From Bacteroidia bacterium (lineage in GTDB: Bacteria; Bacteroidota; Bacteroidia; NS11-12g; UBA955), in contig JBGAKR010000001.1 of assembly GCA_044224315.1 (NCBI GenBank), positions 1,298,733-1,362,732 of the forward strand: a stretch of 64,000 nt of DNA. The letters run 5' to 3'. The position numbers and the translations under genes were made by a program. Shown piece after piece: positions 3,091 through 57,851 of the stretch. How positions within the stretch are numbered: the stretch's first letter is position 1; every line of letters starts with the position of its first letter. Below the pieces are notes generated by a model. The model had not been told where the DNA came from and ran no database searches. It was given only the letters and a program-made list of their open reading frames with translations.

Positions 3091-3099
3091 TTCGGTTTT

Positions 3100-8544: not shown

Positions 8545-8575
8545 TCAGTAAATAAATTAAAAGTCTAAAATGTGC

Positions 8576-38749: not shown

Positions 38750-41700
38750 TTACTTGTTTACCATTACAGGGATTTGTTTCATACCGTTGGCGGTTACCAC
38801 ACGGATATAATACAAGCCACCTGCAAGTTCAGAAGCTGAAAGCACCACAGTATGGTTGCCAGCAGCCTGATTTTCGTTAACCAACATTTTGATTCTTGCA
38901 CCTGCAGTGTTGTACACTTCAACCTGCACGTTTTGAGCAGAATTAAGGGCATATGCAACAGTTGCATTGTCGGTAAATGGATTTGGGTAAGCAGTTAATC
39001 CGTTTACAGCAACCGCATTTACTACACCAGCAGCAGCTTCAGTAGAAGCAGCCTGATTGGCCACTTTTTCATTCGCATTTACCTGGGCATCTTTGCCAGC
39101 TGTGTTGGGGTTTTTGCCATCTTTTTGGGCAGTTCTGTTAATACCACTACCAGTGTAAACATAAGATACATTGTAAGTGCCGTTTACCAAAAAGCTGCCT
39201 TTTTGTTTGCTGTAAGAATTATAGTTCATACGGAAATAGTAACTGCCAGGCAGCAATTCTTTTACTGCATTGCCGTTGGCGTCGGTAGTTCCAAAACTGC
39301 TCCAGCTTCCGTTTGAGTAATAGTCACAAGTGGCACCGCTAATGTTGTTGGTTCCGTCATCCAGGTGCTGGGTTACAGTTACAGTTTGGAAATCCACAGT
39401 TTGGTCGGCATTGATGGTCATGCTGCCCACCTGTTGGGTTTGGTTGGCATAGGTCATGCGGAAGTAGTAACTACCTGGCAGTAACTCCATAGTTTCGGTA
39501 CCTCCTGTGGTGGAACCCGAAGCAAATGTATGCCATGCGCCGTTGCTGTAATAGCCCAAGCTGGTAGCATCCCAGGTACCTGTTCCGGCAGCATTATTCA
39601 GTTTTAGGGTAATAGCCCTGGTTTGGAAGTTAACGGTTTGTGAAGTACCGCTTACACTCATGCTACCTTGCTGTTGGGTTTGGTATTCATAAGTCATACG
39701 GAAGTAGTAGCTGCCTGGCAGTAACTCCATAGTAGCAACACCTGATGTGGTACTGGATGGGCTGAAAGTATGCCAATTGCCATTAGAATAGTACGCCAGG
39801 TCGGTAGCATCGTGTGTTCCGGTTCCGGCTGCATCGTTCAGTTTTAAAGTAACAGCGGTAGTTTGGAAATCAACGGTTTGTGAAGTACCGCTAACACTCA
39901 TACTGCCTTTTTGCTGGGTTTGATCCATATAGGTCATACGGAAATAGTAGCTGCCGGGCAACAATTCCATAGTAGCTACTCCATTGGTTGTGCTGCTTGG
40001 AGAAAAGGTGCGCCAGTTACCATTAGAGTAGTAGCCTAGGCCTGTAGCATCGTGTGTACCGGTTCCAGCCGCATCATTCAGTTTAAGAGTAAGGGCTGTG
40101 GTTTGGAAGGTAATGGTTGGATTGGCTCCCAAAGATGCAATGTTGATTGAACCTTTTTGTTGGGTTTGGTAAGCATAGGTTAAGCGGAAATAGTAGTTTA
40201 CAGGCAATAGCTCCATGCTGCATTTGCCGCCCGAAGTAGCACCCGAACCGAAAGCATTCCAGTTGCTGGCATAGTATCCAATATCAGTTCCTTCATTGTT
40301 ATACAATGTACCGGCACTGTTGCGCAATTCTACCACTACATTTTTAGTTTGGAAGGTTACAGTAGTAGTTGTATTAATATTATAGCTACCCAATTGCTGA
40401 GATGCATTGGCGTAGTTCATACGGAAATAGGCATTGTTTACACTTGAGGGGAACAATACAAGTGCATTACCACTGCTGTTAGTAGTACCTACACCATTGG
40501 TCCAGCTGCTTACATAGGCATCAACCACACCACCGGCAATGCCAGCTCCACTGCTGTTAAGCAATTTTACAACCACTGCTTTTTGGTTTAATGAGCAACC
40601 ACTTACAGTAAGGTTGGCATCTATTCCACCAATTTTAAATACATAACTACCGGGTAGTAAATAGCTGTTGTTTGTAAACGACCAGAAATAACCATCGATA
40701 TTGCCTTTGAATGAAATGCCGCTGCCATTGATAGTAACAAGGGTAGTGGTAAATGGCACATCCTGGCTGGTACCACTAATTGCGGTTCCGCCGGTTTTGT
40801 TGTTATAATGGTTATAGCTCATAGAGATATCGTAGGTTTCGGGCAGCAGGTCCAGTGCAAGCACACCTGCGCTGGTATTGCCCATATTCCAGTAATAACC
40901 ATCTATATTGCCTTTGATTGACACGTTTCCGGCACCTGCAGTTACCAAAGCATTGTTACAATCCGTAATTTTTACATTGGTGCGGGTGGTCGCAAAATCC
41001 ACATTCTGATCGGTTCCGGAAATCGCTACACTGGTTTTTGTATTGCGGCCATGGTTGTAATCCATGCGGAAATCGTAGGTTTCTGGCAACAGGCTTATAG
41101 AAACCACACCGTTTACAGAGTTGCCCATATTCCAATAGTAACCATCGATGTTTCCTTTGATAGAAACATTGGCACCAGTGGTAGAAATAACATTGTTCTG
41201 GTAATCCAACACGCGAACTTTAACACAGGTTGTGGCGAAGTTCACATTTTGGCTGGTACCACTTATGGCTACACTGGTTTTGGTATTGCGGCCGTGGTTG
41301 TAATCCATACGGAAGTCGTAAGAATTAGGCAACAGATTCAAATCCAGTATGCCATTTGCAGTGTTGCCCATGTTCCAGAAGTAACCATCAATATTGCCTT
41401 TGATAGACACGTTGGCTACAGCTCCACCCGATGGAGCAGTAGGACCGCTGATGCCATAGAATGCACCCTGGCTGCCTTCCAGAATCTGGCGATCGGTGCT
41501 TGATAATTCTGCGCCGAAAGTTACAATTTCAGAAATCCAACCATCCAGGCCGGTTACTAAATCAGCGCGACTGCCAATGTATAGAGGCTGGCCTGCATCG
41601 CTGTAGTGGCTGCCAATAGAGCTTGATCCGTTGGAGCTGCCATTGTAGTAAGTATTGAGGTTGCCACCTGGGGTACCTTGGTAAGTCCAGATGCCAAGTG

Positions 41701-43134
41701 GTTTAGAAGCATTAAAGCTGTTTGTATGATCGATAAAAGTATAGTTACTGCCAGTACCAACTACAAAACGGGCATTGTAAAAATCAAGCGGAGCAGGTAC
41801 ATTTTTGCTGCTTGCACCAGTTTTGTTTACAATTGCATTGTAGGTAAGGTTGCTGTTTACTTTAGCCACACCGTTGTAAGAAACACCGCTGCTGTAGGCA
41901 GTAAAGTTAGAGGTGAATAAACCATAGTTCATACCCATAAAACGGATGGCTGGGCGGCCATTTTGTCTTTCAACCACACCGGCTTTCAAAATGCGGGGCT
42001 GGCGGCCTGTATTGCTTTGGCCGGCATCACGGCTGTTACCGCTTTGGTCATACCATTTTGTTACATAAGCATCACCATTGGTGCAAGCGCTGGAAACAAA
42101 AGTTTTTATTGCTGCAGTATCCAAATCTCCGTTGGTTGTAAATCCAATATCGGTTTCGGCATTGTCGCAGCTGCGGCGGATACGAATGGCATTGCCACTG
42201 TAATCGCTGCGCAATTTGCGCAATGAAAACGATGCTGGAGAAGATTGGCTGATAGCGCCCAGTGGGTTTTCGCCACCGGTCATTATACCATTGCAATTGC
42301 TTACAGTAACTTTAACACAGGTTGTAGTAAAATCTACATTTTGGCTGCTGCCAGAAATGGCTGCTGATTTTTCGTTGCGGCCGTGGTTGTAATCCATGCG
42401 GAAATCGTAAGTGATACCCCCCAGCAGGTTTATTTCTAAAACGCCAGCTGTGGTATTTCCCATATTCCAGTAATAACCATCGATATTGCCTTTTACAGAT
42501 ACATTAGCTGCCGAACCGGTGGTAACCAGTCCGTTGCAATTGTTTACGCGAACTTTTACGCAGGTTGCAGTAAAGTCTACATCCTGGGTGGTACCGCTAA
42601 TGGCTACACTTGAATTGTTGCGGCCATGGTTGTAGTCCATCTGGAAATCATAGGTATTTGGCAGCAAATACAGGCTTTTAACCCCCGATGAGGTATTGCC
42701 CATATTCCAGTAATAGCCATCTATATTGCCTTTAATGGCAACATTTCCGCTACCTGCAGTAATAATACCATTGCAGTTTTTTAGGTTTACAGAAACTTTG
42801 GTAGTTTGGAAAAATACAGAATCAACGCCGGCGGTTGCTGTTAAATAGTTGCGGCCATGGTTGTAATCTACATAGAACTGGTAAGAATTACCGGCTGTAA
42901 GATTGGGGATTACCAATGCACCATTTGTAGTGGTACCTTGTGAGTAATAGTAGGCTCCGATTTTCATGTAAACGGCTGCTGTTGCACCCGAAACGGTAGA
43001 CGAACCTGTCTCATCCAACAGTTTCACCGTCGGACTGACCATGGTAGGTGGGGTAGAGGCGACGACCTTCTGTAAGAAGAGCATCGAAAATCCTGCTGCC
43101 ATCAGCAAACACGATTTTTTAATTAGTAGTTTCA
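38750..43134 (-). CDS. T9SS cargo protein with tandem ~95-aa modules (NVSIKGNIDGYYWNMGN...DFRMDYNHGRN) and type-A CTD; paralog of the 996-aa gene
   Basis: Start taken at MKLLIKKSCLLMAAGFSMLFLQ (signal peptide). The track's 57-aa N-terminal extension overlaps the upstream gene's terminator hairpin. The C-terminal half shares MELLPGSYYFRMTY modules and the CTD LTAYPNPFTDNATVAYAL...GLYYIRVVTANGMKQIPVMVNK with the 996-aa protein. Confidence 0.8.
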
Positions 43135-43293
43135 TTTTCAAATTAGTTGTTTTAATGGAACAACAATAATATGTAATATACTTACTACCCATTTTTGAAA
43201 CAACACCAAGGAGCATTCTCGATTTACGAATGACAGGAATAGATTTACGTATAATAAATACACAGATATTTAGAAAGTTACAACATGCATTAA

Positions 43294-43328
43294 ATAAAAA
43301 GGCCATGCAAACTGCATGGCCTGTAATG
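43294..43328. terminator. intrinsic terminator after the 2141-aa gene
   Basis: aaaaaggccatgca-aac-tgcatggcc: perfect 9-bp stem with the run on the minus strand. Confidence 0.55.
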
Positions 43329-43347: not shown

Positions 43348-46300
43348 TTAATGCTGCACTATAATCTTGCTGCTTAACACTGTGCCATTCATGTTTACAT
43401 GAATAAGGTAAACACCGTTGCTGAATTCTTTCAGCGAAATGCTGTTGTCGGTGGCGGTATTCATGTTTTTAGATAAAAGTACCTTTCCATCCAGCGAAAT
43501 CACTTTAACATCTGCCGTTTCCAAGCCTTCGGGCCATACCAGATTCACAGCGGTATTGGCCGGATTTGGGTACAATGTAAGGGTGGTTGGAATCATCAGA
43601 TTCAATCGGGCTGCAACCATATCCGAGGTTTCGGAAAGATTGTTATTGTCTACAAGTTTCAAACGGTAGTAATATAGTATACCGGCTTTGGCATTAAGGT
43701 CATTATAGCCATAGCGGGTTTCAGTGCTGCTGTTTCCGATTGCGGCCACTGTGCCGATTTTTACAAAGTCTTTACCATTTTCGCTGCGTTCTACATCAAA
43801 GCGGGCTGCATTGTTTTCGGATGCTGTAGCCCAGCCTACATGGATGTATTTGTTGTTTACACCATTGGCAGTGAGGTACAACAATTGTACTGGCAATGGA
43901 GTAAGCCCCAAAGGACCAGCTCCTCCGCCGCCACCGCTAAAGCCGGTAACATTAAACTGTGCATAATAGTTGCCAGCCGTGCGGTTGCCCAGCACCCATG
44001 AAGTATCAGTGGCTACTGAGCTGTAGGTTATTACTTTTACATCACCCTGGTTTAGTGAAGGCACAGATGCATGTGCGGGTTTACCACTATTAATTACTTT
44101 CCAGAAACTTAAATCATTGGCATTGAAAATACCGGGCAATCCGTTGGTGGTTAATGTATTATCGAGTGAAGCAATATCGCTGCTGTTAAAATAGAAGCGA
44201 ACGGCCACTTTGCTGCTTGGCTGAGTTGTTGGAGATACATTCCAGGTGCGGTCCATAGCAGCATATCCAAATGAGTTTCCTACAAAACCTACATGATTTG
44301 CATAGAAATTGCTTCCGGTACTGTTAATCTTTAAGCTAATTCCATTATCCGGAATAACTGCACCTGTACCCCCCAGTTTTAAGCTCAGTAACAGTTTGTT
44401 CTGGCAGTCGCAATAGTGCGTAAATCCGCTGGATGGGCTGGTATAGCTTTGGGTAGAAGTATAGGTACCTGCTGCTGTTGCTGCAGTGCTGGTGCTATCA
44501 CACAATGGAGCACAGCTTACACCTGTAGTTACACCTCCTGGTGCAATCCAGTTACTGCCCGAACCTGTGAGAGCAAAGTTTGTAAGTGTGCCGTTAAAGC
44601 TTCCCGATGCGTTGTCGGTGAGGCTGGTAACACTGGTGTTGGTGCCGCTGGCCAAACCCTGATTAAATTTATAGTAAGCCAGTAAGCCATTTGGGGTGCC
44701 AGACAATTCACAGTTCATATGACCCTGAATCTCGGCCTGGCAAAGCACTTTGTTCCATACTCTTACCTCATCAATACTACCATCCATGGTATAGCCCGAG
44801 TTCCAGGCACCAATCTGATGACTGCCGCCGGTATTGGTACCCATGCTGCCAGAGGCTACCTGGGTTCCGTTTACATACAAGGTACCGGTGCTTGTGCTGG
44901 CATCGTAAGTAATGGCCACATGGGTCCATGCACCCTGGGTAAATGTAGCCGCTTGCTGCACCCTGGCGCCACCCGATGTAAAGCTGTTGGCAGCAGTAAG
45001 TTTGCCACCTTCAATCCAGAAAGGTTGGTCGTTGCTGGAAACGATATTCATATCAGCACCGGCACCTGAACGCACATTGATCCAGGCTTCTTTGGTATAG
45101 GAAGAAGAAGCGGGTATAACGCTGCCAATGGTTACATAGTCATTGCTGCCATCAAAGTTTAGCGCGGCGCCGGGGGTTACGCTGTTGCCTTGCAATGTAA
45201 AGTCATAAGCAGCCTCATCACAATCATTGCTGTTAATGGTAAGGATGGCAGATTTGCTTCCGGTGCTGGTAGGCAGGAATGTAACGGTTACAGTAGCAGA
45301 GCCACTGGCAGCTATGGGGCCGGCTGGATTTAATGCACCCACGCTGAACAGAGTAGGATTGGCACCAGAAAGGCCGATGCTGGAAATGGTAATGGGTGAA
45401 ACGCCCAGGTTTTCGATGGTATAAGTGCGGGTAAATGGAGTATTTACGTTCACATCGCCAAAGTCGGTATGGTCTGCAGCGCTAGGAGTAACATCACCAT
45501 CGGTTATGCTCACACTATTGCCTTTTACGTTAATTTCTGGTCCATAAGCTGCGCATGAAATTCCACTTGAAACGGCAGCATCGCCAATCCAGTTAGAGTT
45601 GCTGCCACTTAGTGTAAAACCATTGAGTGTGCCGGTATTTCCGTTTCCGGTTGCATCGCTAAGGCTGGTAATGCCGGCATTGCTGCCAGATGCTATGCCC
45701 TGGTTAAAATGGTAATTGGATACCAGATTAGAGCCCACAGTAGCAATTTCACAGTTTTTGTTGTTCAGAATTTCTTCTACACACAATGCACGCGACCAGA
45801 TTCTAACTTCATCTAAAGATATGTTACCTTCTTCGCCGCTGCCGTTTAAACGACCGCCTAAGCGCCATGCTGCAGATGTAAGATTGGCATTTAAAGTATG
45901 GGTTGATACCAAAGAACCATCCATATATACATTCAGGGTAGTACCCAAACGGGTAAAGGCCATATGGTGCCAAACACCAGAACCCAGATTGCAATTCATA
46001 TTGCCGTTAGATCCATAGGCTATGCTCCATGCAGGAATGCCCGAACCGAAAGCGTATACCTGACCAGCTACACCGGGTGCAGCATCAATTACTGATATTT
46101 CAAACAGGTCGCCCGAGGTACTGATAATGCGCGGGAAAGCACCAGAGCCTGTTCCGTTTTTCTTTACCCAAAATTCAACTGTAAAGTCGGTAAGAGAAAG
46201 GGTAGGAAGTGCTACATAATCACCCGATCCGTCGAATTGAAGAGCAGAACCGGGGAAGTTGGTACCACCATTGGCGTTTGCAAGTGCAAATGGGCTAAAG

Positions 46301-49300
46301 GTTGTAAAGTTAACGCTGGAGGTAATGCTTCCGCTGCCATTGGCAGATCCGGTGCCACCTATATTGTCCCAGTTTCCGCCATTGCCTTTTACCAGACGCA
46401 GGTTGCTGTTGTCGGTAACACCATCATCGGCTCCGTAAAACAATTGCACACTTGCAGCGCTGAGGTTGCCGGTTGCAGAACGGTCGATTTGCCAGTAACG
46501 CACAGGCGACACTTTGTCTACAGTACCTGGCAGGGTCAGTCCCAGTGTTTGGGCGCTTATGTTTTTAACTTCGGCAGTATAGTCAAAGTTGGCAGCAGAG
46601 GTATGGGTAACATTCAGCAAAGCCTGGCGGTATTGGCTGCCGGCCCCTATGGGGAAGAAAATATTGTTGTTTACACCATTGTTTGCAATCATGCGCACCA
46701 TAGGGCCGCTTACAAACGAGTTGCTGTTACCACCACTCACACCCACAGTTCTGTCTACACGGAGCAGATTGGATGAGGTGGTAATCATTTTACCATTTTG
46801 GAAAGAAATAGATTGTGAAGCACCGGCATCGAGGGTACAGGTAGAAAGCAGTGTAACATTGTTAGCCGCTTTGTCTACGATAATTGAACCGTTAAACAAG
46901 GCAGTAGCGCCGGTCAGGTCAAAGTTTTGGGCATTGCTGCCGGTGAAAATGAGTTTGCCGTTACCACCATCAAAAGTAGAGGCTACGGTAACATTGCCAC
47001 CTGCGGTTACAAGGTTGTTGCTGATCCCATCTGTATAGGTAAGGTTGTTTAATACATCCAGCGAGTCGCCGGCGCCGTTTGCAAAAATTGAGTTTGTACA
47101 ACCGGTTGGGGCGTTCAGATTGAGGTTGTAAAACCGGGTGTTGTTTATAACGTTTATGGTAAAGGTAAACTGAGTGCAACCAGCCGTTGGGCTCAGTACT
47201 ACATTGCCGTTGTTGTGTACAAATGTTCCGCCGGTTTGGTTAAACAGGTTGTTACTACTGGTTTGAGAACCGCCTATGTTAAAGGTGCCGCTTGGGGCAG
47301 TAAATGAACCGTTGAACAAGGCAAAGCCCTGGGTAGAAAAATCGGTGGTACCTCCAGCGGGTGTCACTGCGCCTAAGCTTTTGTCTACAATCAATTTGCA
47401 GGTGCGCAACCCGCCGGTTGTAAACGAATAGGTTTGGGCAGTATTGCCATTCATAGTAATGGTGCCATTACCTCCGTCAGAGGTGTTGGCTACAATCAGG
47501 TTGCCCTTAAGCTCAAAATCGCCGTTGACAGTACCATCGGTATGGGTAAGATCGCCCACTACATTTACTACATCGCCGGTAGCGGTAACAAATATGGGGT
47601 TAATACCGCAACTTTGGGTTCCGTTGATAATGAGGTTAAAAAAGTCGGTTCCATTTAGCACATTCAGTGTAAAGGTAAGCTGGGTGCAACCCTGGTGATT
47701 GGGGTTCAAGGTTACAGTGCCATTGTTGTGGTCAAATACACCCCCGGCATGGTCAAATAAAACCACGCTTGAATTCCAGATTCCACCAATATTGAATACA
47801 CCGGTTGGCGCTATAAACATGCCGTTATTCAGTGTAAAGCTTTGGGTTGAAAGATTGGTTGTACCAGTTTCCGGTGAAAGCACACCGGCAGTTTTATCTA
47901 CTACCAGCTTGCAGGTACGCGCAGCCCCGGCAGTGAAAGTATATTTCTGAAACCCGGTGCCATTGGCTGTAATGGTTCCAGAACCCCCGTCAGAAGTAGG
48001 ATCAATAAACAAGTCTTGCTGAAAAGAAAACAAGCCATTGATTATACCATCTGTATGGGTAAAATTATGCACGCAGGCTGCCACATCGGCCCCTGCAGTT
48101 GTAATAACGGGGTTTACACTGCAACTGGGTGTACCGTTAATTTGAAGGTTGTAAAACAGGGTTGAACTAATAACATCCAGGGTAAAGGTGAGTTGAGAAC
48201 AACCGGATTGATTTGGATTAATTATTACAGTACCATTATTGTGGTTGAAGGTACCTCCGGTATGGGTAAACAAGTTTTGGCTGCTAGTCCAGAAACCTCC
48301 GGTATTTAAACTACCCGAAGGTGCAGTAAAAGAACCTGCCAGCAAACTGAAACTTTGAACTGAAAGATTTGTAGTGCCACTAAACGGAGTAAAAGTACCG
48401 CCAGTTTTGTTCACAATAAACCGGCATGTGCGGTTGCTTCCAGAAGCTACTGAGTATGTTTGATTATTACTGCCGGTAGCTGTAATGGTTCCGGTTCCGC
48501 CATCGGCATTGCTGCCAATAATTAAATCTCCTTCAAATTCCACACTACCGTAAAACAAACCATCTGTGTGTGTCAAAGCCCCTAAGGCGGTTACCACATC
48601 ACTGGTAGCGGTAGTAATTACCGGGTTCACACTGCAACTGGGTGTAGCATTCAGTTTTAAACCAAAAAGCACAGTGCTTGGAATTACATCAATGGTAAAT
48701 ACCAATTGGCTGCAACCCGTTTGAGTAGCATTTATTTCTACGGTACCATTATTATGGTTAAAGGTACCTCCGGTATGGTTAAAAAGCACTTGGTTGCCGT
48801 TAAAGATACCTCCACTATTTAGGGTGCCTGAAGGCGCAGTGAAAGTACCAGCCTGTAGTAAAAATCCCTGGCAGGCAAAATCGGTAGTACCTCCGGCAGC
48901 GCTGAGGGTTCCGGCTGATTTATTTACATCGAGCTTTGCAGTCCGTCCACCGCTGGTGTATGCATAAGTTTGGGCGCCACTGCCATTGGCAGTTATAGTT
49001 CCGCTTCCACCATCCGCATTTGCTCCTACAATAAGGTTGCGCTGAAAGGCGAATGCACCGGTAACAAATCCATCTGTATGGGTAATGTCGTTGGTTACAT
49101 TCACCACATCGCCGCTGCCACTAGCAATGGCGGGGTTTACCGAACAACTGGGGCTTGCATTCAGGCCCAGGTTGTAAAAGTCGGTTCCGGCAATCACATC
49201 TATGGTATAGGTTATTTGTGAGCAGCCAGTTTGGTTGGGGTTGATATTTACTGTTCCGTTGTTGTGGTTAAAGGTACCAGCACTGTGGTTGAAAATCGTT

Positions 49301-49773
49301 TGGCTGAAGCCTCTTGAGCCGGTAATGGTAAAATTACCCGAAGTGGAGGTGAAAGTACCCCCACTCAAAGCAAAAGTTCCGGTACCGTTGATAGTAATGG
49401 CAGAACTACTGCCTGTGAATGTACCGCTGCTTTGGCTAAACCCGTTTGAACCGGCTGTAATTGTAAATCCATTTTGGCTGATAGTTCCGGTATAGCCAGA
49501 TATTTGAATACCGGCTACATTCACATTGGCATCAATGTCACAGTTGCCATTAAACCCGGATGCGCCATCAAAAATGGCAATATCATTTACTCCCGGTACC
49601 GATGCACCAGAGCCGGTACCCGATGTGGCAGACCAGTTTGCAGTGTTGTTCCAGTTGGTAGATGAAGCACCCACCCAAAAACGGTTGGCTGCATTTATTA
49701 CCAGGGCAAAGGTGCTTAAAAAGAGCACCAGGGTAACCTTTAATAAGGCTTTCATTGTATTGTTGTTTTTCAC
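43348..49773 (-). CDS. giant T9SS cargo protein (2141 aa): ~160-aa N-terminal module repeats, LamG/ConA-like domains, type-A CTD
   Basis: Signal peptide MKALLKVTLVLFLSTFALVINA. Repeated modules GGTFNHNNGTV.INPNQ.GCSQ.TFT.DV....FYNL. Two LamG-like domains with DEVRIW(S/N)(R/K)(A/V)LC. CTD LYPNPANTAVNLVWPEG...GVYLIHVNMNGTVLSSKIIVQH. Confidence 0.85.
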   Translation of the reverse strand: MKNNNTMKALLKVTLVLFLSTFALVINAANRFWVGASSTNWNNTANWSATSGTGSGASVPGVNDIAIFDGASGFNGNCDIDANVNVAGIQISGYTGTISQNGFTITAGSNGFSQSSGTFTGSSSAITINGTGTFALSGGTFTSTSGNFTITGSRGFSQTIFNHSAGTFNHNNGTVNINPNQTGCSQITYTIDVIAGTDFYNLGLNASPSCSVNPAIASGSGDVVNVTNDITHTDGFVTGAFAFQRNLIVGANADGGSGTITANGSGAQTYAYTSGGRTAKLDVNKSAGTLSAAGGTTDFACQGFLLQAGTFTAPSGTLNSGGIFNGNQVLFNHTGGTFNHNNGTVEINATQTGCSQLVFTIDVIPSTVLFGLKLNATPSCSVNPVITTATSDVVTALGALTHTDGLFYGSVEFEGDLIIGSNADGGTGTITATGSNNQTYSVASGSNRTCRFIVNKTGGTFTPFSGTTNLSVQSFSLLAGSFTAPSGSLNTGGFWTSSQNLFTHTGGTFNHNNGTVIINPNQSGCSQLTFTLDVISSTLFYNLQINGTPSCSVNPVITTAGADVAACVHNFTHTDGIINGLFSFQQDLFIDPTSDGGSGTITANGTGFQKYTFTAGAARTCKLVVDKTAGVLSPETGTTNLSTQSFTLNNGMFIAPTGVFNIGGIWNSSVVLFDHAGGVFDHNNGTVTLNPNHQGCTQLTFTLNVLNGTDFFNLIINGTQSCGINPIFVTATGDVVNVVGDLTHTDGTVNGDFELKGNLIVANTSDGGNGTITMNGNTAQTYSFTTGGLRTCKLIVDKSLGAVTPAGGTTDFSTQGFALFNGSFTAPSGTFNIGGSQTSSNNLFNQTGGTFVHNNGNVVLSPTAGCTQFTFTINVINNTRFYNLNLNAPTGCTNSIFANGAGDSLDVLNNLTYTDGISNNLVTAGGNVTVASTFDGGNGKLIFTGSNAQNFDLTGATALFNGSIIVDKAANNVTLLSTCTLDAGASQSISFQNGKMITTSSNLLRVDRTVGVSGGNSNSFVSGPMVRMIANNGVNNNIFFPIGAGSQYRQALLNVTHTSAANFDYTAEVKNISAQTLGLTLPGTVDKVSPVRYWQIDRSATGNLSAASVQLFYGADDGVTDNSNLRLVKGNGGNWDNIGGTGSANGSGSITSSVNFTTFSPFALANANGGTNFPGSALQFDGSGDYVALPTLSLTDFTVEFWVKKNGTGSGAFPRIISTSGDLFEISVIDAAPGVAGQVYAFGSGIPAWSIAYGSNGNMNCNLGSGVWHHMAFTRLGTTLNVYMDGSLVSTHTLNANLTSAAWRLGGRLNGSGEEGNISLDEVRIWSRALCVEEILNNKNCEIATVGSNLVSNYHFNQGIASGSNAGITSLSDATGNGNTGTLNGFTLSGSNSNWIGDAAVSSGISCAAYGPEINVKGNSVSITDGDVTPSAADHTDFGDVNVNTPFTRTYTIENLGVSPITISSIGLSGANPTLFSVGALNPAGPIAASGSATVTVTFLPTSTGSKSAILTINSNDCDEAAYDFTLQGNSVTPGAALNFDGSNDYVTIGSVIPASSSYTKEAWINVRSGAGADMNIVSSNDQPFWIEGGKLTAANSFTSGGARVQQAATFTQGAWTHVAITYDASTSTGTLYVNGTQVASGSMGTNTGGSHQIGAWNSGYTMDGSIDEVRVWNKVLCQAEIQGHMNCELSGTPNGLLAYYKFNQGLASGTNTSVTSLTDNASGSFNGTLTNFALTGSGSNWIAPGGVTTGVSCAPLCDSTSTAATAAGTYTSTQSYTSPSSGFTHYCDCQNKLLLSLKLGGTGAVIPDNGISLKINSTGSNFYANHVGFVGNSFGYAAMDRTWNVSPTTQPSSKVAVRFYFNSSDIASLDNTLTTNGLPGIFNANDLSFWKVINSGKPAHASVPSLNQGDVKVITYSSVATDTSWVLGNRTAGNYYAQFNVTGFSGGGGGAGPLGLTPLPVQLLYLTANGVNNKYIHVGWATASENNAARFDVERSENGKDFVKIGTVAAIGNSSTETRYGYNDLNAKAGILYYYRLKLVDNNNLSETSDMVAARLNLMIPTTLTLYPNPANTAVNLVWPEGLETADVKVISLDGKVLLSKNMNTATDNSISLKEFSNGVYLIHVNMNGTVLSSKIIVQH
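46190..47100. repeat. ~0.9-kb block near-identical to 52835-53745 (inter-paralog gene-conversion tract), copy 1
   Basis: The encoded ~300 aa (FANGAGDSLDV...TNFPGSAL) are identical in both giant proteins. Antisense ORFs 46589-47038 and 53234-53683 (149 aa) differ at one residue. Offset is 6645 bp. Confidence 0.8.
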
Positions 49774-49835
49774 GGTTTTAATTTTTTTTTACTAATTTTT
49801 ATTGTGCCGAAAAATTAGTAAAACCGGCTATAGAC

Positions 49836-49868
49836 ATAAAAAGCGCTTGCATTGCAAGCGCTTTTTAT
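49836..49868. terminator. bidirectional intrinsic terminator after the 2338-aa gene
   Basis: aaaaagcgcttgcattgcaagcgcttttt. Confidence 0.55.
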
Positions 49869-49881
49869 GTGGTTAATTTAA

Positions 49882-52800
49882 TTATCTTTTAATTACCAAA
49901 CGGCTGTTAATTACTGTGCCGTTTACATGCAGACTAACAATGTAAACTCCTTGGCTGAAGCTACTTACATTGATTTTACTACTATTGGCAATATCTACAT
50001 TTTGGTTGTACACTTCCCTACCATCTGCACCGTTAATTACAACTGAAGCAGTTTCTGTACCTTCGGGCCATACAATATTCAATTCTGTATTAGCGGGGTT
50101 TGGATACATTACAATAGTAGTAGGTACTAATTGGTTCAGTTTTGCAGAAACTACATAGGTAATGGTGCTATTGCCACCGGTTTCAACAACTCTTAAACGG
50201 TAGTAGTATTGTTTGTTGGTTTTGGCGTTGACATCCTTAAAGCTATAGGTCAATGGGCTTTCGCTGTTGCCGGCAGCAGTTAGTGTGCCGATCTTTACAA
50301 AGTCTTTGCCGTTTTCGCTGCGTTCCACTTCAAACCAGGCAGTGTTGTGCTCCTGGGCAGTAGCCCATTTTACCTGAATATATTTGTTGTCTACCCCTGT
50401 AGCAGTGAGATATAACAAGTCTATTGGCAATGGAGTAAGGCCTAATGGACCTGCTCCTCCGCCACCACCACTAAAGCCGTTTACAAAAAACTGTGCAAAG
50501 TAGTTTCCACCGCTGCGATCGCCAAGTACCCAGGTTGAGTCTGTAGCTACGGCACTATAGGTAATTACTTTAACATCATACTGGCTAAGAGCTGGTACAG
50601 CAGCATGTGCGGGTTTTGAGCCATTGATTACTTTCCAGAAACTTAAATCGTTGGCATTGAAAATACCAGGCAATCCGTTGGTGGTTAAAGTATTGTCGAG
50701 TGAGGAAATGTCACTGCTGTTGAAATAGAAGCGCACAGGTACTTTGCTGGTGGGCTGGGTGGTTGGTGATACATTCCAGGTGCGGTCCATTGCTGCATAT
50801 CCAAATGTATTGCCTACAAAACCTACATTGTGTGCGTAGAAATTGCTTCCGGTACTGTTGATTTTTAAGCTAATTCCATTATCCGGAATTACAGCGCCTG
50901 TACCCCCCAGTTTTAAGCTTAGTAACAGTTTGTTCTGGCAGTCGCAATAGTGCGTAAATCCGCTGGATGGGCTGGTATAGCTTGTAGTAGAGGTATAAGT
51001 ACCTGCTGCAGTGGCAACAGAATTGGTACTGTCGCACAAGGGGCTGCAACTTACACCTGTAGTTATAGGTCCGGCAGCAACCCAGTTACTGGAGCTACCT
51101 GTAAGGGCAAAGTTTGTGAGGGTACCAGAGTTTCCGTTTCCGCTGGCATCGTTCAGGGTGGTTACACTGGTGTTTGTGCCAGCGGCCAGGCCCTGGTTAA
51201 ACTGGAAGTAAGCGGCCAGGTTCTTTTGAGTGCCGGTTAACTCACAGTTCATATTGTGCTGAATTTCGCTTTGGCACAAAACCCTGCTCCATACGCGCAA
51301 TTCTTCCATTTTACCGTCGAAATTGTTACATACACAAGAGCTGGGCTGCTGTCTGCCAATAGTTACAATACCATTGTCAGGACCCGGACTGGCAACTGGG
51401 CCAAACAGGCCGCTGCTGTGGGTACTTAATACAGCACCATCCAGGTAGAAAACTACTTGCTGTGCATTGGCATCAAAAGTGGTGGCAATGTGGTGCCATG
51501 CTCCGGTTGGAACGCTGCCTGAAGAATAAACCCAACCCATAGAAGGATTGTATAAGCCTAAACCGGTGTTTCCGTTAGGATGGGTTTGGAACAGGTATCT
51601 GTAATCACCTTTATCAATAATGGTGTTGTTTTTATTGTCATCGAGGTAAACCCAGGCTTCGATGGTATAGGTTTTATCCAAATCCATGGTGCCGTTGTCG
51701 GGGATACTTACATAGTCATAAGTAGAAGGGCTGATGTTAGAACCGCCGGGGTTTGTATTTCCCCAACCGTCAAAGTGCAGCACACCAGCTGGGGTTACAC
51801 TGTTGCCTTGTAATGCGAAGTCGTATGCAGCTTCATCACAATCATCACTGTTAATGGTAAGTGTAGCAGTTTTGGTGCCAGTGGTGGTAGGCAGGAAAGT
51901 AACAGTTACAGTAGCAGAGCCACTGGCAGCTATGGGACCGGCTGGATTTAATGCACCCACGCTGAACAGAGTAGGATTGGCACCAGAAAGGCCGATGCTG
52001 GAAATGGTAAGCGGAGAAACACCCAGGTTTTCGATGGTATAAGTGCGGGTAAATGGAGTATTTACGTTCACATCGCCAAAGTCGGTATGGTCTGCAGCAC
52101 TAGGAGTAACATCGCCATCGGTTATGCTCACACTATTGCCTTTTACATTAATTTCTGGGCCATAAACACCACATGATATGCCATTGGCAACTGCACCGGA
52201 AGATACCCAGTTAGAAGTGGTGCCGTTCAGGGCCATGTTATTTAAAGTTCCAGTTCTTGAATTGCCAGAAGCATCGTTTAAAGAAGTTACACCGCTGTTG
52301 TTTCCTTCGCCAATACCTTGGTTAAAGTGATAGTTGGCCAATAAACCACTGGCAGAGGTTGGGATTTCACAACTCATATTGTTCTGAATTTCACCTTGGC
52401 ACAAAACGCGGTTCCAAATACGTACTTCATCAATGGTGGAAGTACTGAAACCTTGTCCGTCGTCAATCCAGCCGCCAATAGTAAGTGCTTTGGATGTGTT
52501 GGTGCTGATCGTACCTGTTAAAGTAGAAGTACCTACCAATACACCATTGATATACATTTTATGGTTGCCCGATGCATAAGTAATGGCGATGTGGTTCCAT
52601 ACACCATTTCCGGCAGCAGCTGTGCTGGTTATTGCAGTAGTGCCATAAGCATAGGGGTTCCAAATAATTTTTGCAGTTGCAGGGTCAGAGCCATTGAGAG
52701 CAATCAGCTGATTGGTGAATACTCCGTTGCTTTGACGGGCCAAAACAGCACCATAGCTGGTGTTGAGGTAGCCAGCATCCTGGGTTCCGGTCCATTTAAC

Positions 52801-55800
52801 CCACATTTCTATTGTACCACTTTGCAGATTATCCAATCCGCCACCAGATGGCACAGAAACATAATCATCACCACCTACAAAATTCAATGCAGAACCGGGG
52901 AAGTTGGTACCACCATTGGCGTTTGCAAGTGCAAATGGGCTAAAGGTTGTAAAGTTAACGCTGGAGGTAATGCTTCCGCTGCCATTGGCAGATCCGGTGC
53001 CACCTATATTGTCCCAGTTTCCGCCATTGCCTTTTACCAGACGCAGGTTGCTGTTGTCGGTAACACCATCATCGGCTCCGTAAAACAATTGCACACTGGC
53101 AGCGCTGAGGTTACCGGTTGCAGAACGGTCGATTTGCCAGTAACGTACAGGCGACACTTTGTCTACAGTACCTGGCAGGGTCAGTCCCAATGTTTGGGCG
53201 CTTATGTTTTTAACTTCGGCGGTATAGTCAAAGTTGGCAGCAGAGGTATGGGTAACATTCAGCAAAGCCTGGCGATATTGGCTGCCGGCCCCTATGGGGA
53301 AGAAAATATTGTTGTTTACACCATTGTTTGCAATCATGCGCACCATGGGTCCGCTTACAAACGAGTTGCTGTTACCACCACTCACACCCACAGTTCTGTC
53401 TACACGGAGCAGATTGGATGAGGTGGTAATCATTTTACCATTTTGGAAAGAAATAGATTGTGAAGCACCGGCATCGAGGGTACAGGTAGAAAGCAGTGTA
53501 ACATTATTAGCCGCTTTATCTACGATAATTGAACCGTTAAACAAGGCAGTAGCGCCGGTCAGGTCAAAGTTTTGGGCATTGCTGCCAGTGAAAATGAGTT
53601 TGCCGTTACCACCATCAAAAGTAGAGGCTACGGTAACATTGCCACCTGCGGTTACAAGGTTGTTGCTGATACCATCGGTATAGGTAAGGTTGTTTATTAC
53701 ATCCAGCGAGTCGCCGGCACCGTTTGCAAAAATGGGGCTAGAGCATCCGGTGGTTCCGTTAAACTGAAAATTATAGAATTGGGTTGAAGGCAATACATCC
53801 ACAGTAAATGTATATTGGGTGCAGGGCAGATTGGGGTTTAGCACCACAGTACCATTGTTGTGGCTGAATGTACCACCCATATGGTTAAACAGAGTTTGAT
53901 TGTTGTTCCAGATTCCGCCAATATTCATATTGCCGGTGGGTGCAGTAAAGGTACCCGATTTAAGGGTAAAAGACTGCATGTTAAAGTTGGTAGTTCCGCC
54001 TGCAGCAGAGAATGTGCCGGATGGTTTATCAACAATAATTTGTATGGTGCGGGCCGAGCCTGCAGCCTGGGAGTATGTTTGAGCGCCGTTACCGTTTGCA
54101 GTAAGTGTACCAGTTCCACCGTCTGAGGTTGCTGCGATAGACAAGTTACCCCAGAAAGTAAAATCACCATTGATAATACCATCGGTATGGGTAAAGTCGC
54201 CAGCCATTTGAATTACATCACCGCTGGCAGTAGTAATAATTGGTGAGGAGCAACCGGTAGTGCCGTTAATTACCATGTTGTAAAACCAGGTTGATGGCAA
54301 TACATCCAGGGTAAAAGTACGCTGGGTGCAAGGCAGGTTGGGATTGATTACCACTGTACCGCCGTTGTTGTCAAATGCACCACCACTATGTAAAAACAGG
54401 GTTTGGTTTGCATCCCATATTCCGCCAATGTTCATATTGCCTGTTGGGGCAATAAACATCCCGTGAATAAGGCTGAAAGTTTGGCAGCTAAGGGCAGTGG
54501 TTCCGGTTTGGGGCGACAATACACCGGAAGGTTTATCAACTATAATTTTGCAGGTACGGGCAGCACCGGCAGCATATACGTATTTTTGGAAACCTGTACC
54601 TTTTGCAGTAATAGTTCCGGTACCACCATCCGAAGTTGAACCAATGGTTAAATCTCCATTAAAATCAACTAAACCATTTAAGATACCATGGGTATGGGTA
54701 AAGTTATTCTGCACATTTACCACATCTCCGCCCGCGGTTGTAATAATGGGGCTAGAGCAACCGGTTGTACCGTTAATAATCATGTTATAGAAAACGGTGG
54801 TTGGCAATACATCCAGCGTATAGGTGTATTGAGTACAAGGCAGGTTTGGGTTAATTTCAACAGTACCGTTGTTATGGGTAAAGGTTCCACCTGCGTGGTT
54901 AAAGAGGGTAGCATTGCTGTTCCAGAAACCACCAATATTCAGGGTGCCACTGGGGGCGGTGTAGCTGCCTGCCTGCAAATCGAATGATTGGCAGAAGAAG
55001 TTCATAGGGCTGCTTGCCGGGGTAAAGGATCCTGAAGGTTTGTTTACCACTATAAAACCTGTGCGCGCTGTGCCGGTTTGTGAATAGGTTTGGTTGCCAC
55101 TGCCATTAATGGTTAATGTTCCATTTCCGCCATCAGCACCAGCCAACAAAATCAGATTGCCTTTGATACTTGCACTTGAATTTAAAATACCATCGGTATG
55201 GGTAAGGTCGTTGGTTACATCCAAAACATCGCCACTGGCATTAACAAATATGGCTGGAGAGCAACCGGTAGTGCCTTGGAAAGCGACATTGTAGAATGAT
55301 GTGGAATTAATTACATCAATGGTAAATGTGCGTTGGGTGCAGGGAAGGTTGGGATTAAAAGTAACAGTTCCGTTATTATGGCTGAAAGTTCCGCCGCTGT
55401 GAGAAAATAAAACAGCATTGGCATCCCAGGTTCCGCCTATATTGAGGTTGCCACTTGGGGCGGTAAAATTACCAGACTGCAAATCAAAAGATTGGCAGAA
55501 AAAATCCATTGGGCTGCTTGCAGGGGTAAAGTTACCTGAAGGTTTGTTTACCACAATTAATCCGGTGCGTGATGTACCGGTTTGAGAGTAGGTTTGATTG
55601 CCGGTGCCATTAATAGTAAGTGTGCCATATCCACCGTCGGCGCCTGCCAAAAGAATCAGATTGCCTTTGATGTTGGCGCTTGAGTTTAAAATACCATCTG
55701 TATGGGTGAGGTTATTGTTTATATCCAGCACATCACCACTGCCATTTACAAAAATAGCAGGCGTACAACCAGTGGTTCCTTGGAAGGTAACACTGTAAAA

Positions 55801-56898
55801 AGCAGTAGTATTTAATACATCAATGGTAAGTGTGCGTTGTGTGCAAGGCAGGTTGGGGTTAAATACCACCGTGCCGTTATTGTGCGAAAAATTGCCACCG
55901 GTATGGTTAAACAAGGTTTGGTTGGCGTCCCAGGTTCCACCAATATTCATATTGCCGGATGGAGCGGTAAAATCGCCGGCTTGTAACACAAACGACTGGC
56001 AGTACAAATCCATGGGGCTGGTTGCGGGGGTAAAGGTTCCGCTTGATTTGTTTACGTTTAATATTGCTGTGCGGCCTGTGCCGGTTTGAGTATAGGTTTG
56101 GCTTCCGGTTCCGTTTATAGTTATTGTGCCATAGCCACCATCTGCACTGGCCCCAACGGCAAAGTTTCCGGTAAGTTCTGCAGTACCGTTAAAAATACCA
56201 TCGTTGTGCGTGAGGGTGTTGGAAACCATCAAAACATCGCCGCTGCCAGTTGCTATAATTTGGGGTGAGCAACCGGTAGTAGTTGTAAGGGTAACATTGT
56301 AAAACTGGGTAGAAGACCCGTTAAGGTCCAGGGTATGCGTAAATTGGGTGCAACCGCTACCGGTATTGAGAAAGAATGTACCGTTATTGTGATTAAAGGT
56401 ACCCGCAGAATGGGTGAATACAGTAGAGCTTGAAACCCGGGTTCCGCTAATGGTAAATGTACCTGAAGTGCTGGTAAATGTGCCACCCGACAAGTTGAAA
56501 ACACCTGTAGTGTTTATTGTAAAGCTCTGGCTGCCACCAGCAAATGTACCTGAGGTTTGGGTATAACCATTGGCACCACAGGTAATTGTGAATGAATTTT
56601 GCGATAATGTACCGCTATATCCATTCATCAAAATACCAGAAACAGAAACGTTCATGTCAATGCTACAGTTGCCATTTAAACCGCCCGTTCCATCAAAGAT
56701 GGCTACGTCGCCGGCTCCTGGAACAGAGGCTCCACTTGCACCGCCCGAGCTGGCCGACCAGTTGCCCGTATTGTTCCAATTAGATGCCCCGGACGAAACC
56801 CAGTAGCGGTTAGCCGAAAAGGCAGGAATAGAAAATGCAATCGCAACAAAGAGGAGTGTTAGGACTGATTTTCTTTTTGAGTTGATTTTTAATCTCAT
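49882..56898 (-). CDS. giant T9SS cargo protein (2338 aa), tandem paralog of the 2141-aa gene
   Basis: Same module architecture. The C-terminal ~450 aa are about 90 percent identical to the neighbour. CTD MYPNPANTELNIVWPEG...GVYIVSLHVNGTVINSRLVIKR. Confidence 0.85.
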   Translation of the reverse strand: MRLKINSKRKSVLTLLFVAIAFSIPAFSANRYWVSSGASNWNNTGNWSASSGGASGASVPGAGDVAIFDGTGGLNGNCSIDMNVSVSGILMNGYSGTLSQNSFTITCGANGYTQTSGTFAGGSQSFTINTTGVFNLSGGTFTSTSGTFTISGTRVSSSTVFTHSAGTFNHNNGTFFLNTGSGCTQFTHTLDLNGSSTQFYNVTLTTTTGCSPQIIATGSGDVLMVSNTLTHNDGIFNGTAELTGNFAVGASADGGYGTITINGTGSQTYTQTGTGRTAILNVNKSSGTFTPATSPMDLYCQSFVLQAGDFTAPSGNMNIGGTWDANQTLFNHTGGNFSHNNGTVVFNPNLPCTQRTLTIDVLNTTAFYSVTFQGTTGCTPAIFVNGSGDVLDINNNLTHTDGILNSSANIKGNLILLAGADGGYGTLTINGTGNQTYSQTGTSRTGLIVVNKPSGNFTPASSPMDFFCQSFDLQSGNFTAPSGNLNIGGTWDANAVLFSHSGGTFSHNNGTVTFNPNLPCTQRTFTIDVINSTSFYNVAFQGTTGCSPAIFVNASGDVLDVTNDLTHTDGILNSSASIKGNLILLAGADGGNGTLTINGSGNQTYSQTGTARTGFIVVNKPSGSFTPASSPMNFFCQSFDLQAGSYTAPSGTLNIGGFWNSNATLFNHAGGTFTHNNGTVEINPNLPCTQYTYTLDVLPTTVFYNMIINGTTGCSSPIITTAGGDVVNVQNNFTHTHGILNGLVDFNGDLTIGSTSDGGTGTITAKGTGFQKYVYAAGAARTCKIIVDKPSGVLSPQTGTTALSCQTFSLIHGMFIAPTGNMNIGGIWDANQTLFLHSGGAFDNNGGTVVINPNLPCTQRTFTLDVLPSTWFYNMVINGTTGCSSPIITTASGDVIQMAGDFTHTDGIINGDFTFWGNLSIAATSDGGTGTLTANGNGAQTYSQAAGSARTIQIIVDKPSGTFSAAGGTTNFNMQSFTLKSGTFTAPTGNMNIGGIWNNNQTLFNHMGGTFSHNNGTVVLNPNLPCTQYTFTVDVLPSTQFYNFQFNGTTGCSSPIFANGAGDSLDVINNLTYTDGISNNLVTAGGNVTVASTFDGGNGKLIFTGSNAQNFDLTGATALFNGSIIVDKAANNVTLLSTCTLDAGASQSISFQNGKMITTSSNLLRVDRTVGVSGGNSNSFVSGPMVRMIANNGVNNNIFFPIGAGSQYRQALLNVTHTSAANFDYTAEVKNISAQTLGLTLPGTVDKVSPVRYWQIDRSATGNLSAASVQLFYGADDGVTDNSNLRLVKGNGGNWDNIGGTGSANGSGSITSSVNFTTFSPFALANANGGTNFPGSALNFVGGDDYVSVPSGGGLDNLQSGTIEMWVKWTGTQDAGYLNTSYGAVLARQSNGVFTNQLIALNGSDPATAKIIWNPYAYGTTAITSTAAAGNGVWNHIAITYASGNHKMYINGVLVGTSTLTGTISTNTSKALTIGGWIDDGQGFSTSTIDEVRIWNRVLCQGEIQNNMSCEIPTSASGLLANYHFNQGIGEGNNSGVTSLNDASGNSRTGTLNNMALNGTTSNWVSSGAVANGISCGVYGPEINVKGNSVSITDGDVTPSAADHTDFGDVNVNTPFTRTYTIENLGVSPLTISSIGLSGANPTLFSVGALNPAGPIAASGSATVTVTFLPTTTGTKTATLTINSDDCDEAAYDFALQGNSVTPAGVLHFDGWGNTNPGGSNISPSTYDYVSIPDNGTMDLDKTYTIEAWVYLDDNKNNTIIDKGDYRYLFQTHPNGNTGLGLYNPSMGWVYSSGSVPTGAWHHIATTFDANAQQVVFYLDGAVLSTHSSGLFGPVASPGPDNGIVTIGRQQPSSCVCNNFDGKMEELRVWSRVLCQSEIQHNMNCELTGTQKNLAAYFQFNQGLAAGTNTSVTTLNDASGNGNSGTLTNFALTGSSSNWVAAGPITTGVSCSPLCDSTNSVATAAGTYTSTTSYTSPSSGFTHYCDCQNKLLLSLKLGGTGAVIPDNGISLKINSTGSNFYAHNVGFVGNTFGYAAMDRTWNVSPTTQPTSKVPVRFYFNSSDISSLDNTLTTNGLPGIFNANDLSFWKVINGSKPAHAAVPALSQYDVKVITYSAVATDSTWVLGDRSGGNYFAQFFVNGFSGGGGGAGPLGLTPLPIDLLYLTATGVDNKYIQVKWATAQEHNTAWFEVERSENGKDFVKIGTLTAAGNSESPLTYSFKDVNAKTNKQYYYRLRVVETGGNSTITYVVSAKLNQLVPTTIVMYPNPANTELNIVWPEGTETASVVINGADGREVYNQNVDIANSSKINVSSFSQGVYIVSLHVNGTVINSRLVIKR
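52835..53745. repeat. ~0.9-kb near-identical block, copy 2 (see 46190-47100)
   Basis: Same evidence as copy 1. Confidence 0.8.
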
Positions 56899-57851
56899 AT
56901 TGCTTTGGTGGTTTGATTTTTTCGAAATTTTTTGTCCGTTTTGATAATATTTAATTTAGTAAACCATTAGTGTTTACAAGGCTTTTGCGAGCCTTAACGC
57001 TGTTGTTTTTTTTGATTTTAGTGACAATTTAGTTTTCAATACGGTATGCAAATAAAGGTTATCCACATTTTATTTCCAATTTCCAGGATTTGAAGCCTGC
57101 AAAGTGAACATGTACATAGATTTGTAGGTCAAATAGAGTGTGAATAACCGTCAATATTGAGTTTCCGAAGGATGATGTTCGTTAATAAAATCACCAGATT
57201 GAAAAAAATGAATTTACGTATGAAGGTTATGACTTTACAAAAACCCTTAAAAAATTAACGAAAAAATTAAATGAAAAATTAACCGATAAAACCGATTAAA
57301 ATAGTGATTAATAAATTAAAAATACATGTATATGTCTTTAAACCATATTTTTGTATATTACAGCTTCTTAAAAAAATGTGATTTTTTTTATCAATAATCT
57401 TATTGCTAGAATATTTGTTCGAACAATTGGATTTTCACCCTTTCCCAACCAAATTGGCTTTCGTATACTTAAACCCGCACTCGGTGAGTTTTGTGTTTTG
57501 CCCATAAATTATCACCTTAAGTAAACAACAATAGGACGTGATTTAGGATCAGAAATCCTTACTGTACCTCAAAAAACAAAGGCAATTTCTCCAACAAAAG
57601 GATCCAAACTGCTTAATTTAGTATGCCCAAACTGCCTTGTGGTAAAGTATAATGGATAAAATCCCTCTTTGTCCCATCCGGATATTCGGGTTTAAAATTT
57701 TTAATTTCAAGTTAAAACGTCCTTTTATTAATCAAAAATTAATATTCATTAATTTTATTTTAATAATCATGAGTCTAAATATGCAACTAATAAGTTTTCA
57801 CAGGGTATTATTTTGCCCCTGATTTGCATAGAATAGGGTCGGTTTGTGAAA

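Follow-up and report, generated by a model that had tools for sequence, protein, structure and literature searches.

In Helicobacter pylori, the adhesin paralogs babA/babB and homA/homB evolve in concert through gene conversion (PMC3960876), and in Porphyromonas gingivalis the variation of RgpA, Kgp and HagA has been ascribed to homologous recombination, in the form of domain rearrangement, gene conversion and the exchange of alleles (PMC5266723). The locus described here invites comparison with both. It consists of two giant genes, A and B, that lie in tandem in a 64,000-nucleotide stretch of the genome of a Bacteroidia bacterium (positions 1,298,733 to 1,362,732 of contig JBGAKR010000001.1; hereafter the window), and that encode predicted cargo proteins of the type IX secretion system (T9SS). 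A and B are quite probably ancient tandem paralogs between which segmental gene conversion has occurred repeatedly, leaving tracts of different ages.

What the pair has in common with the bab and hom genes is that one segment is alike within the genome while other segments are divergent, a pattern attributed in H. pylori to RecA-dependent intragenomic recombination that yields chimeras (PMC3960876). Unlike A and B, however, the bab and hom genes are scattered over separate loci and encode beta-barrel outer-membrane proteins of ~80 kDa, and conversion between them has been shown by experiment to switch the binding phenotype. A and B are adjacent, their products are T9SS cargo of more than 2000 amino acids (aa) with several internal tracts of different ages, and they are known here from sequence alone. 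With RgpA, Kgp and HagA they share the status of Bacteroidota surface proteins that bear a T9SS C-terminal domain (CTD). The P. gingivalis proteins combine gingipain protease and haemagglutinin/adhesin domains and are encoded at dispersed loci, whereas A and B are made of a beta-helix stalk, LamG domains and a choice-of-anchor D domain; the P. gingivalis evidence also came from 21 strains (PMC5266723), against one genome and one distant relative in the present case. Beta-helices are found in other adhesins and in tailspikes as well (UpaB, Ag43 and Fap2; the two-partner secretion proteins HMW1 and EtpA; phage tailspikes), but the modules of A and B have no Pfam or PDB sequence match. The five named adhesins use type V secretion rather than export by a T9SS CTD, and the helix of A and B differs from all of these in being laid out in large, positionally distinct super-repeats.

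An earlier sequence-only reading of the window had pointed out two tandem minus-strand open reading frames (ORFs) of 2141 and 2338 aa, and the ORF calls bear this out. The 2141-aa length of A comes from a GTG at 49773 that was called mechanically; the likely start is the ATG at 49755, which gives 2135 aa. Both proteins are present exactly in the databases (P0001 for A and P0002 for B), located on one NCBI contig of 1,474,951 bp. The coordinates of the pair and of its parts are collected in Table 1.

The youngest trace of exchange between the two genes is a block of 849 bp. Between its two copies 16 codons differ, with 18 nucleotide mismatches in all (98.2% identity over 845 bp in blastn). Its edges are sharp, with identity falling away within a few codons on either side. 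The earlier reading had claimed a near-identical block between 46190 and 47100; the block and its offset of 6645 bp from the second copy stand, while the lower of the two limits was set some 50 bp too far out. At the background identity of 0.59, 16 or fewer mismatches in 849 positions would have a probability of ~1e-163, and the best 849-nt window across 1000 shuffles reached 634 matches, compared to the 832 observed. The window contains these two copies of the block and no third. By the Nei-Gojobori method, the proportion of synonymous differences (pS) between A and B is 0.70-0.75 in the modules, the LamG domains and the CTD, and is thus saturated there. In the block it is 0.09, with a synonymous divergence (dS) of about 0.08-0.10 and a nonsynonymous divergence (dN) of 0.012. 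Since selection on the protein cannot suppress synonymous change, this step from saturation to 0.09 demands a recent shared ancestry of the block DNA itself. The differences that do exist are synonymous in 15 of the 16 codons (about 24% would be expected under neutrality, P = 8e-9), and so they are real substitutions filtered by selection, not errors.

This last point matters for the quality of the assembly. Repeats as long as ~850 bp are well known to cause misassembly, and the contig that carries the closest relative of the B type (P0004; locus L082, Logan SRR26181890) stops 38 bp past the gene. One could thus suspect that diverged paralogs had been collapsed or chimerised, or that a single segment had been duplicated in the assembly. 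A collapse, however, would produce identical copies or errors blind to codon position, whereas the two copies differ in the way expected of real divergence under purifying selection. Both ORFs remain in frame through both junctions, two more tracts of intermediate divergence are present in the same pair, and the contig is 1.47 Mb long. We therefore consider an artefact very improbable. The break in the P0004 contig is itself of the kind that may be expected ahead of a near-identical tandem paralog, and tandem pairs may be under-represented in metagenome-assembled genomes (MAGs) built from short reads.

The two further tracts are less similar. One of them, additional to what the earlier reading had listed, begins together with choice-of-anchor D and, where that domain ends, fades shortly ahead of the second LamG domain; its dS is 0.26 and its dN 0.026 over A codons 1411-1530. 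The other lies in the C-terminal region, where dS reaches 0.58 at a dN of 0.026 over A codons 1787-1886. It had been claimed that the last ~450 residues of the two proteins are about 90% identical. The actual figure is 69.8%; an identity of 94% is reached only at A 1787-1886, and the CTDs are at 43%. The three tracts look like the products of events of different ages. Because the downstream edge of the block stops 2-3 codons short of the first LamG domain and the choice-of-anchor D tract likewise abuts a LamG domain, the conserved segments bracket the variable LamG binding domains. In this mosaic, conversion homogenises the scaffold segments of the proteins, with diversity concentrated in the LamG domains.

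Table 1. Features of genes A and B, and protein identity between A and B segment by segment; positions are counted from the first letter of the window.
Feature	Position	Strand	Description	Evidence or comparison
Gene B	49882..56898	-	2338-aa T9SS cargo, upstream copy	ORF, Pfam and NCBIfam domains, identical to database protein P0002
Gene A	43348..49755	-	2135-aa T9SS cargo, downstream copy	ORF, domains, identical to P0001 from ATG
Youngest tract, A copy	46240..47088	-	codons 896-1178; C-terminal half of last beta-helix module and cap
Youngest tract, B copy	52885..53733	-	codons 1056-1338	constant offset of 6645 bp from A copy
Second, older tract, A	45277..45546	-	codons 1410-1499, choice-of-anchor D	~96% DNA identity
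Second tract, B	51895..52164	-	codons 1579-1668
Third, oldest recognisable tract, A	44104..44463	-	codons 1771-1890, unassigned C-terminal region	~90% DNA identity
Third tract, B	50638..50997	-	codons 1968-2087
A module array	46870..49431	-	five 171-aa modules, codons 115-968	predicted right-handed beta-helix
B module array	53515..56556	-	six 168-170-aa modules, codons 115-1128
A cap domain	46237..46767	-	177-aa beta-sandwich after the beta-helix	within the youngest tract
B cap domain	52882..53412	-		protein sequence identical to A copy
A LamG domain 1	45679..46233	-		41% to that of B; <=41% to any relative found
B LamG domain 1	52384..52875	-	conserved type	74-84% in B2, P0004, P0007
A LamG domain 2	44725..45153	-		about 30-34% to that of B; nearest is LamG of P0005, 62%
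B LamG domain 2	51229..51717	-		<=30% to anything found
A T9SS type A CTD	43354..43575	-		TIGR04183 47.0 bits (cut-off 23); PF18962 44.8 bits (cut-off 27)
B T9SS type A CTD	49888..50109	-		TIGR04183 39.8 bits; PF18962 43.7 bits; 43% identical to that of A
Palindromic G+C-rich hairpin	49834..49870	.	in the 108-bp spacer between B and A	A and T runs on either side
Terminator-like hairpin and T-run	43300..43322	-	just past the stop codon of A
A-B protein identity, N-terminal modules				about 41-70%
A-B protein identity, block (second half of last module and cap)				about 100%
A-B protein identity, LamG1				32-38%
A-B protein identity, choice-of-anchor D				92-98%
A-B protein identity, LamG2				14-46% (LamG range 14-46% measured in 50-column windows of the pairwise alignment)
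A-B protein identity, C-terminal region				66-94%
A-B protein identity, CTD				34-52%

How old the duplication is can be judged from relatives of the two genes, which come from Cyclobacteriaceae, Cytophagales and unclassified Bacteroidota MAGs. A genome scan, a protein search and a metagenome scan turned up no strain or species closer than about 56%, the best relatives being at 52-56%; the metagenome scan gave two loci only, both of one lineage (that of P0007, described below). The same tandem arrangement is present in GCA_016787485.1 (contig JAEUUL010000030.1, locus L081), where B2 (P0003, 2351 aa) is followed by A2 (P0006, 2160 aa) on the same strand, in the same long-then-short order and at about 52-55% identity. 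Between A2 and B2 the pS across the region homologous to the block is 0.68-0.78, in other words saturated, and this control pair makes it clear that constraint alone does not lower dS there. It has a direct bearing on the idea that strong purifying selection on an essential scaffold domain has kept old duplicates identical with no recombination at all. The dN of the block is indeed near zero, and the family of the cap domain that it encodes is widespread; but selection at the protein level cannot hold pS at 0.09 beside saturated flanks, and at the protein level the block shares no more than 63-73% identity with its orthologs in the relatives, against about 100% between A and B. Taken with the saturated A2/B2 pair, this leaves selection by itself as a scarcely credible explanation.

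The types of the two genes can be recognised across genomes. A and A2 both have five 171-aa modules with an NPNQxGC[ST]Q variant of the module motif, while B and B2 have six modules of ~169 aa with an NPxxPCTQ variant. The first modules pair with the first (A-A2 67%, B-B2 64%) and the last with the last. The orthology of individual segments was compared by a four-point test on Kimura distances, with the four genes A, B, A2 and B2 and thus with one distant relative. The orthologous topology (A with A2, B with B2) is favoured in LamG1 and in the N-terminal portion of the last module. For the three tracts the test favours the within-genome topology (A with B, A2 with B2), with distance sums of 0.33 vs 0.90 for the block, 0.46 vs 0.86 for choice-of-anchor D and 0.34 vs 0.94 for A 1787-1886. 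The saturated control pair, the types that remain recognisable between orthologs and these incongruent topologies together point to an old duplication whose high-identity tracts were homogenised later.

A different history would start from a recent tandem duplication of the whole gene, after which cassettes imported from other paralogs or other strains took the place of stalk, LamG domains and CTD and left the block as a remnant of the duplication. It is true that LamG cassettes are distributed patchily among the relatives (A LamG2 matches that of P0005 at 62%, and B2 LamG2 that of P0007 at 79%), and that P0007 mixes A-type modules with a B-type LamG1. Many independent replacements would be needed, however, and the same pair, with the same type-specific arrays (5 x 171 aa vs 6 x 168-170 aa), is already present in a relative about 52-55% identical. 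The orthologous topologies of the last-module N-part and of the B-type LamG1 speak against it too, and the graded dS values of 0.10, 0.26 and 0.58 are not what a single duplication would lead us to expect. We regard this history as unlikely, and prefer old paralogs with later conversion.

The sequence-only reading had seen ongoing gene conversion between tandem genes, with module shuffling that resembled antigenic or adhesive diversification. Its first part is well supported by the drop in pS, by the 15 synonymous differences out of 16 and by the within-genome grouping of the tracts. The word "ongoing" goes too far, as the youngest tract has already reached a dS of about 0.08-0.10 and the others 0.26 and 0.58. 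Shuffling of modules is likewise not what we find, the modules being positionally orthologous across genes and genomes. Signs of change in the arrays are limited to the copy number, which is 4, 5 or 6 among the relatives, and to a single duplication inside the array of the B lineage: in B, modules 2 and 3 are mutually 81% identical, compared to 40-60% for other module pairs, and their equivalents are at 75% in B2 and 72% in P0004. This indicates that the duplication is an old one, and the two modules have possibly been kept similar by intragenic conversion. Diversification of an antigenic or adhesive kind may still be what the variation of the pair serves.

The duplication that gave A and B is older than the split from the relative at ~52-55% identity. 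As for the mechanism, we infer that homologous recombination would since have taken place between misaligned tandem copies 6645 bp apart, either on sister chromosomes or within one chromosome. The outcome would be patches of one gene copied into the other, non-reciprocally and presumably in a RecA-dependent manner. The block, choice-of-anchor D and the C-terminal part evolve in concert, while divergence has persisted or arisen in the modules of the beta-helix, in LamG1 and LamG2 and in the CTDs. The block is slightly closer to that of the B-type P0004 (73%) than to that of A2 (64%), a weak hint that B may have been the donor. The longest exact run within the block is 209 bp, and the exact runs now present, of 209 bp and 155 bp, should offer enough length for further conversion and for unequal crossover. 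An unequal crossover would join the B stalk to the A head with the loss of 6645 bp, or else amplify the unit.

Several points weigh against this account. The searches found no sister strain or close species, the best relatives being at 52-56%, so that a donor, a direction and non-reciprocity can only be proposed for the transfers. The orthology of both pairs depends on a single distant genome in which the flanking genes are different. Function and secretion are read from domains only, in a window that holds no gene for the T9SS machinery. Moreover, the divergence of the LamG domains could be the result of cassette replacement rather than of escape from conversion, in which case part of the mosaic would have another cause.

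The LamG domains do look cassette-like across the relatives. The identity of B LamG1 to its counterparts in other genomes exceeds the cross-species identity of the block itself, whereas A LamG1 and A2 LamG1 are only 30% identical. The single-copy P0007 gene (L083 10001-16045, JGI 3300027878) is a chimera in which four A-type modules are followed by a LamG1 of the B type (79-81% to B) and a LamG2 of the B2 type (79%), and it shows that recombination between stalks and heads has occurred in this family. The neighbour on its downstream side, examined in case it formed a tandem with P0007, proved unrelated. None of 85 related loci has repeats >=300 bp long and >=88% identical that lie more than 1.5 kb apart; short-read MAGs are biased against the assembly of such repeats.

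The two proteins share one order of parts: a putative signal peptide, the modules, the cap, LamG, choice-of-anchor D, a second LamG, an unassigned region of ~350 aa and a T9SS type A CTD. The N-termini, judged by eye only, read MKALLKVTLVLFLSTFALVINA|AN and MRLKINSKRKSVLTLLFVAIAFSIPAFS|AN; in both the n-region is basic, the core hydrophobic and the end AxA-like. Between this signal-peptide-like start and the modules there are ~110 aa with an NWNNTxNWS...VPGxxDxAIFDG motif in both proteins. The modules are built on a G-G-T-F-x-H-N-N-G-T ... C-[ST]-Q motif. The earlier reading had described repeated N-terminal modules on a motif of this GGTFNHNNGT...C.Q type, which we confirm in both proteins; the array stands, while its size, given as 5-7 modules of ~160 aa, is corrected to five in A and six in B, of 168-171 aa. 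The LamG domains, described there as carrying DEVRIW, have DE[VL]R[IV]W motifs and are matched by PF13385 (Laminin_G_3) at 142.8 bits in A and 157.1 bits in B, against a gathering score of 27.6 bits, in two stretches each, so that there are two such domains in each protein. NF012200, the choice-of-anchor D model with its ASH-like immunoglobulin (Ig) fold, scores 79.5 bits in A (aa 1412-1519) and 83.8 bits in B (aa 1581-1688) at a cut-off of 45, and the proteins of the relatives carry the choice-of-anchor D name at NCBI as well. The proposed set of LamG, ASH/choice-of-anchor and type A CTD domains was thus right, but not their order, as choice-of-anchor D sits between the two LamG domains and the ~350 aa precede the CTD.

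Neither the modules nor the cap nor the ~350 aa of the C-terminal region found a match in Pfam, NCBIfam or PDB sequences. For the modules and the cap, folds were predicted. In an AlphaFold model of the last module and the next 230 aa, built from a 23-sequence alignment (predicted local distance difference test score, pLDDT, 89.2; predicted template modelling score, pTM, 0.86), the module folds as a right-handed parallel beta-helix whose end is capped by the beta-sandwich listed in Table 1; a separate model of this cap reached a pLDDT of 90.5. The copy of Pfam that was searched holds no model for the cap, while a profile made from it matches 7251 cluster representatives (E <= 0.001). In six shorter representatives (<900 aa) that were scanned, the cap precedes a type A CTD, by 70-110 aa in five of them and by 190 aa in the remaining one. 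The nearest solved folds, by two methods, are the GAIN, ZU5 and FIIND beta-sandwiches. Autoproteolysis of the GAIN/FIIND type was considered for the cap and rejected, since the H-[LF]-[ST] or SF|S motif is not conserved: A and B read ANFDYTAEV where some homologs have HFT, and the Ser of the TFSPFAL strand gives way to G, N, I or V elsewhere in the family. For this reason we do not class the cap as a member of GAIN, ZU5 or FIIND, and any resemblance is one of fold only.

Each gene of the pair has a terminator-like hairpin of its own, and A and B are therefore probably separate transcription units, with A having its own transcription start; the hairpin between the two genes is likely the terminator of B. 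Upstream of B there is an unusually long spacer of 950 bp (56899-57851; 31% GC vs about 45% in genes) with no ORF of at least 100 aa inside it, and this spacer may be a site of regulatory elements.

Tandem surface-protein genes with variable binding domains between conserved segments also bring to mind programmed variation, either antigenic variation from silent cassettes or a diversity-generating retroelement. Both copies are complete, though, from start codon and putative signal peptide to CTD and terminator-like hairpin; no promoterless cassettes were found, the block has just its two copies in the window, and there is no reverse transcriptase among the ORFs scanned. The differences within the block are mainly third-position C/T changes and are not adenine-specific. 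On these grounds a retroelement or silent-cassette system was rejected for A and B, its chances being close to nil, and conversion between two complete genes is the reading that we retain.

The ~40 kb around A and B are a run of T9SS cargo genes, with at least eight ORFs that have a type A or type B CTD; no tRNA gene lies in the window. The neighbouring cargo gene, of 1518 aa (38750-43306), contains, in the part that encodes its N-terminus, three direct repeats at 42367-42889, ~240 nt apart and 73-82% identical, which belong to an unrelated repeat family. On the minus strand at 10495-15644, an ORF of 1553 aa with RHS repeats (10983-15644) and one of 163 aa (10495-10986) share 4 nt, and the shorter has one further RHS repeat and a T9SS type A CTD; the pair may represent an RHS toxin for T9SS export whose gene is split or frameshifted, or else two genuine genes. 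A 338-aa protein (16701-17717, minus strand), located between this RHS gene and the cargo genes, combines HTH/MqsA-like and SocA/Panacea antitoxin domains. At 1222-10423, also on the minus strand, there is a cluster resembling a defence island, with an N6/N4 DNA methylase, two restriction proteins of the GmrSD family (DUF262), a UvrD-like helicase and a PD-(D/E)XK nuclease.

From their domains, A and B are most likely adhesins that bind glycans or surfaces, with the LamG domains carrying the specificity. After export by the T9SS, a rigid beta-helix stalk would project these lectin-like domains from the cell surface. One may go a step further and ask, tentatively, whether the homogenised segments (the cap together with the last part of the beta-helix, choice-of-anchor D, and the C-terminal region) could act as recombination anchors for the exchange of LamG cassettes, and of stalks and heads, between paralogs and strains. 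The position of the block edge and of the choice-of-anchor D tract next to LamG domains would fit with this, as would the incongruent LamG types among the relatives and the P0007 chimera. If true, it would amount to a modular exchange system for T9SS adhesins similar to that of tail fibres.

The evolution of this pair follows a pattern already well known among bacterial genes, here in a protein family that is new. The mechanism is a textbook one, and the value of the locus is therefore in annotation and comparison rather than in a new concept. It offers a clean and quantifiable case of segmental concerted evolution in giant T9SS cargo proteins of environmental Bacteroidota, with three tract ages and an orthologous control pair. 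Long identical runs of this kind can break short-read assemblies, and with runs of at least 200 bp the locus is predicted to be prone to unequal crossover, which would give fusion, deletion and amplification variants. The parts that are kept uniform are the stalk end, the cap and the Ig-like spacer, whereas the LamG domains are free to vary, and this points to the LamG domains as the determinants of specificity.

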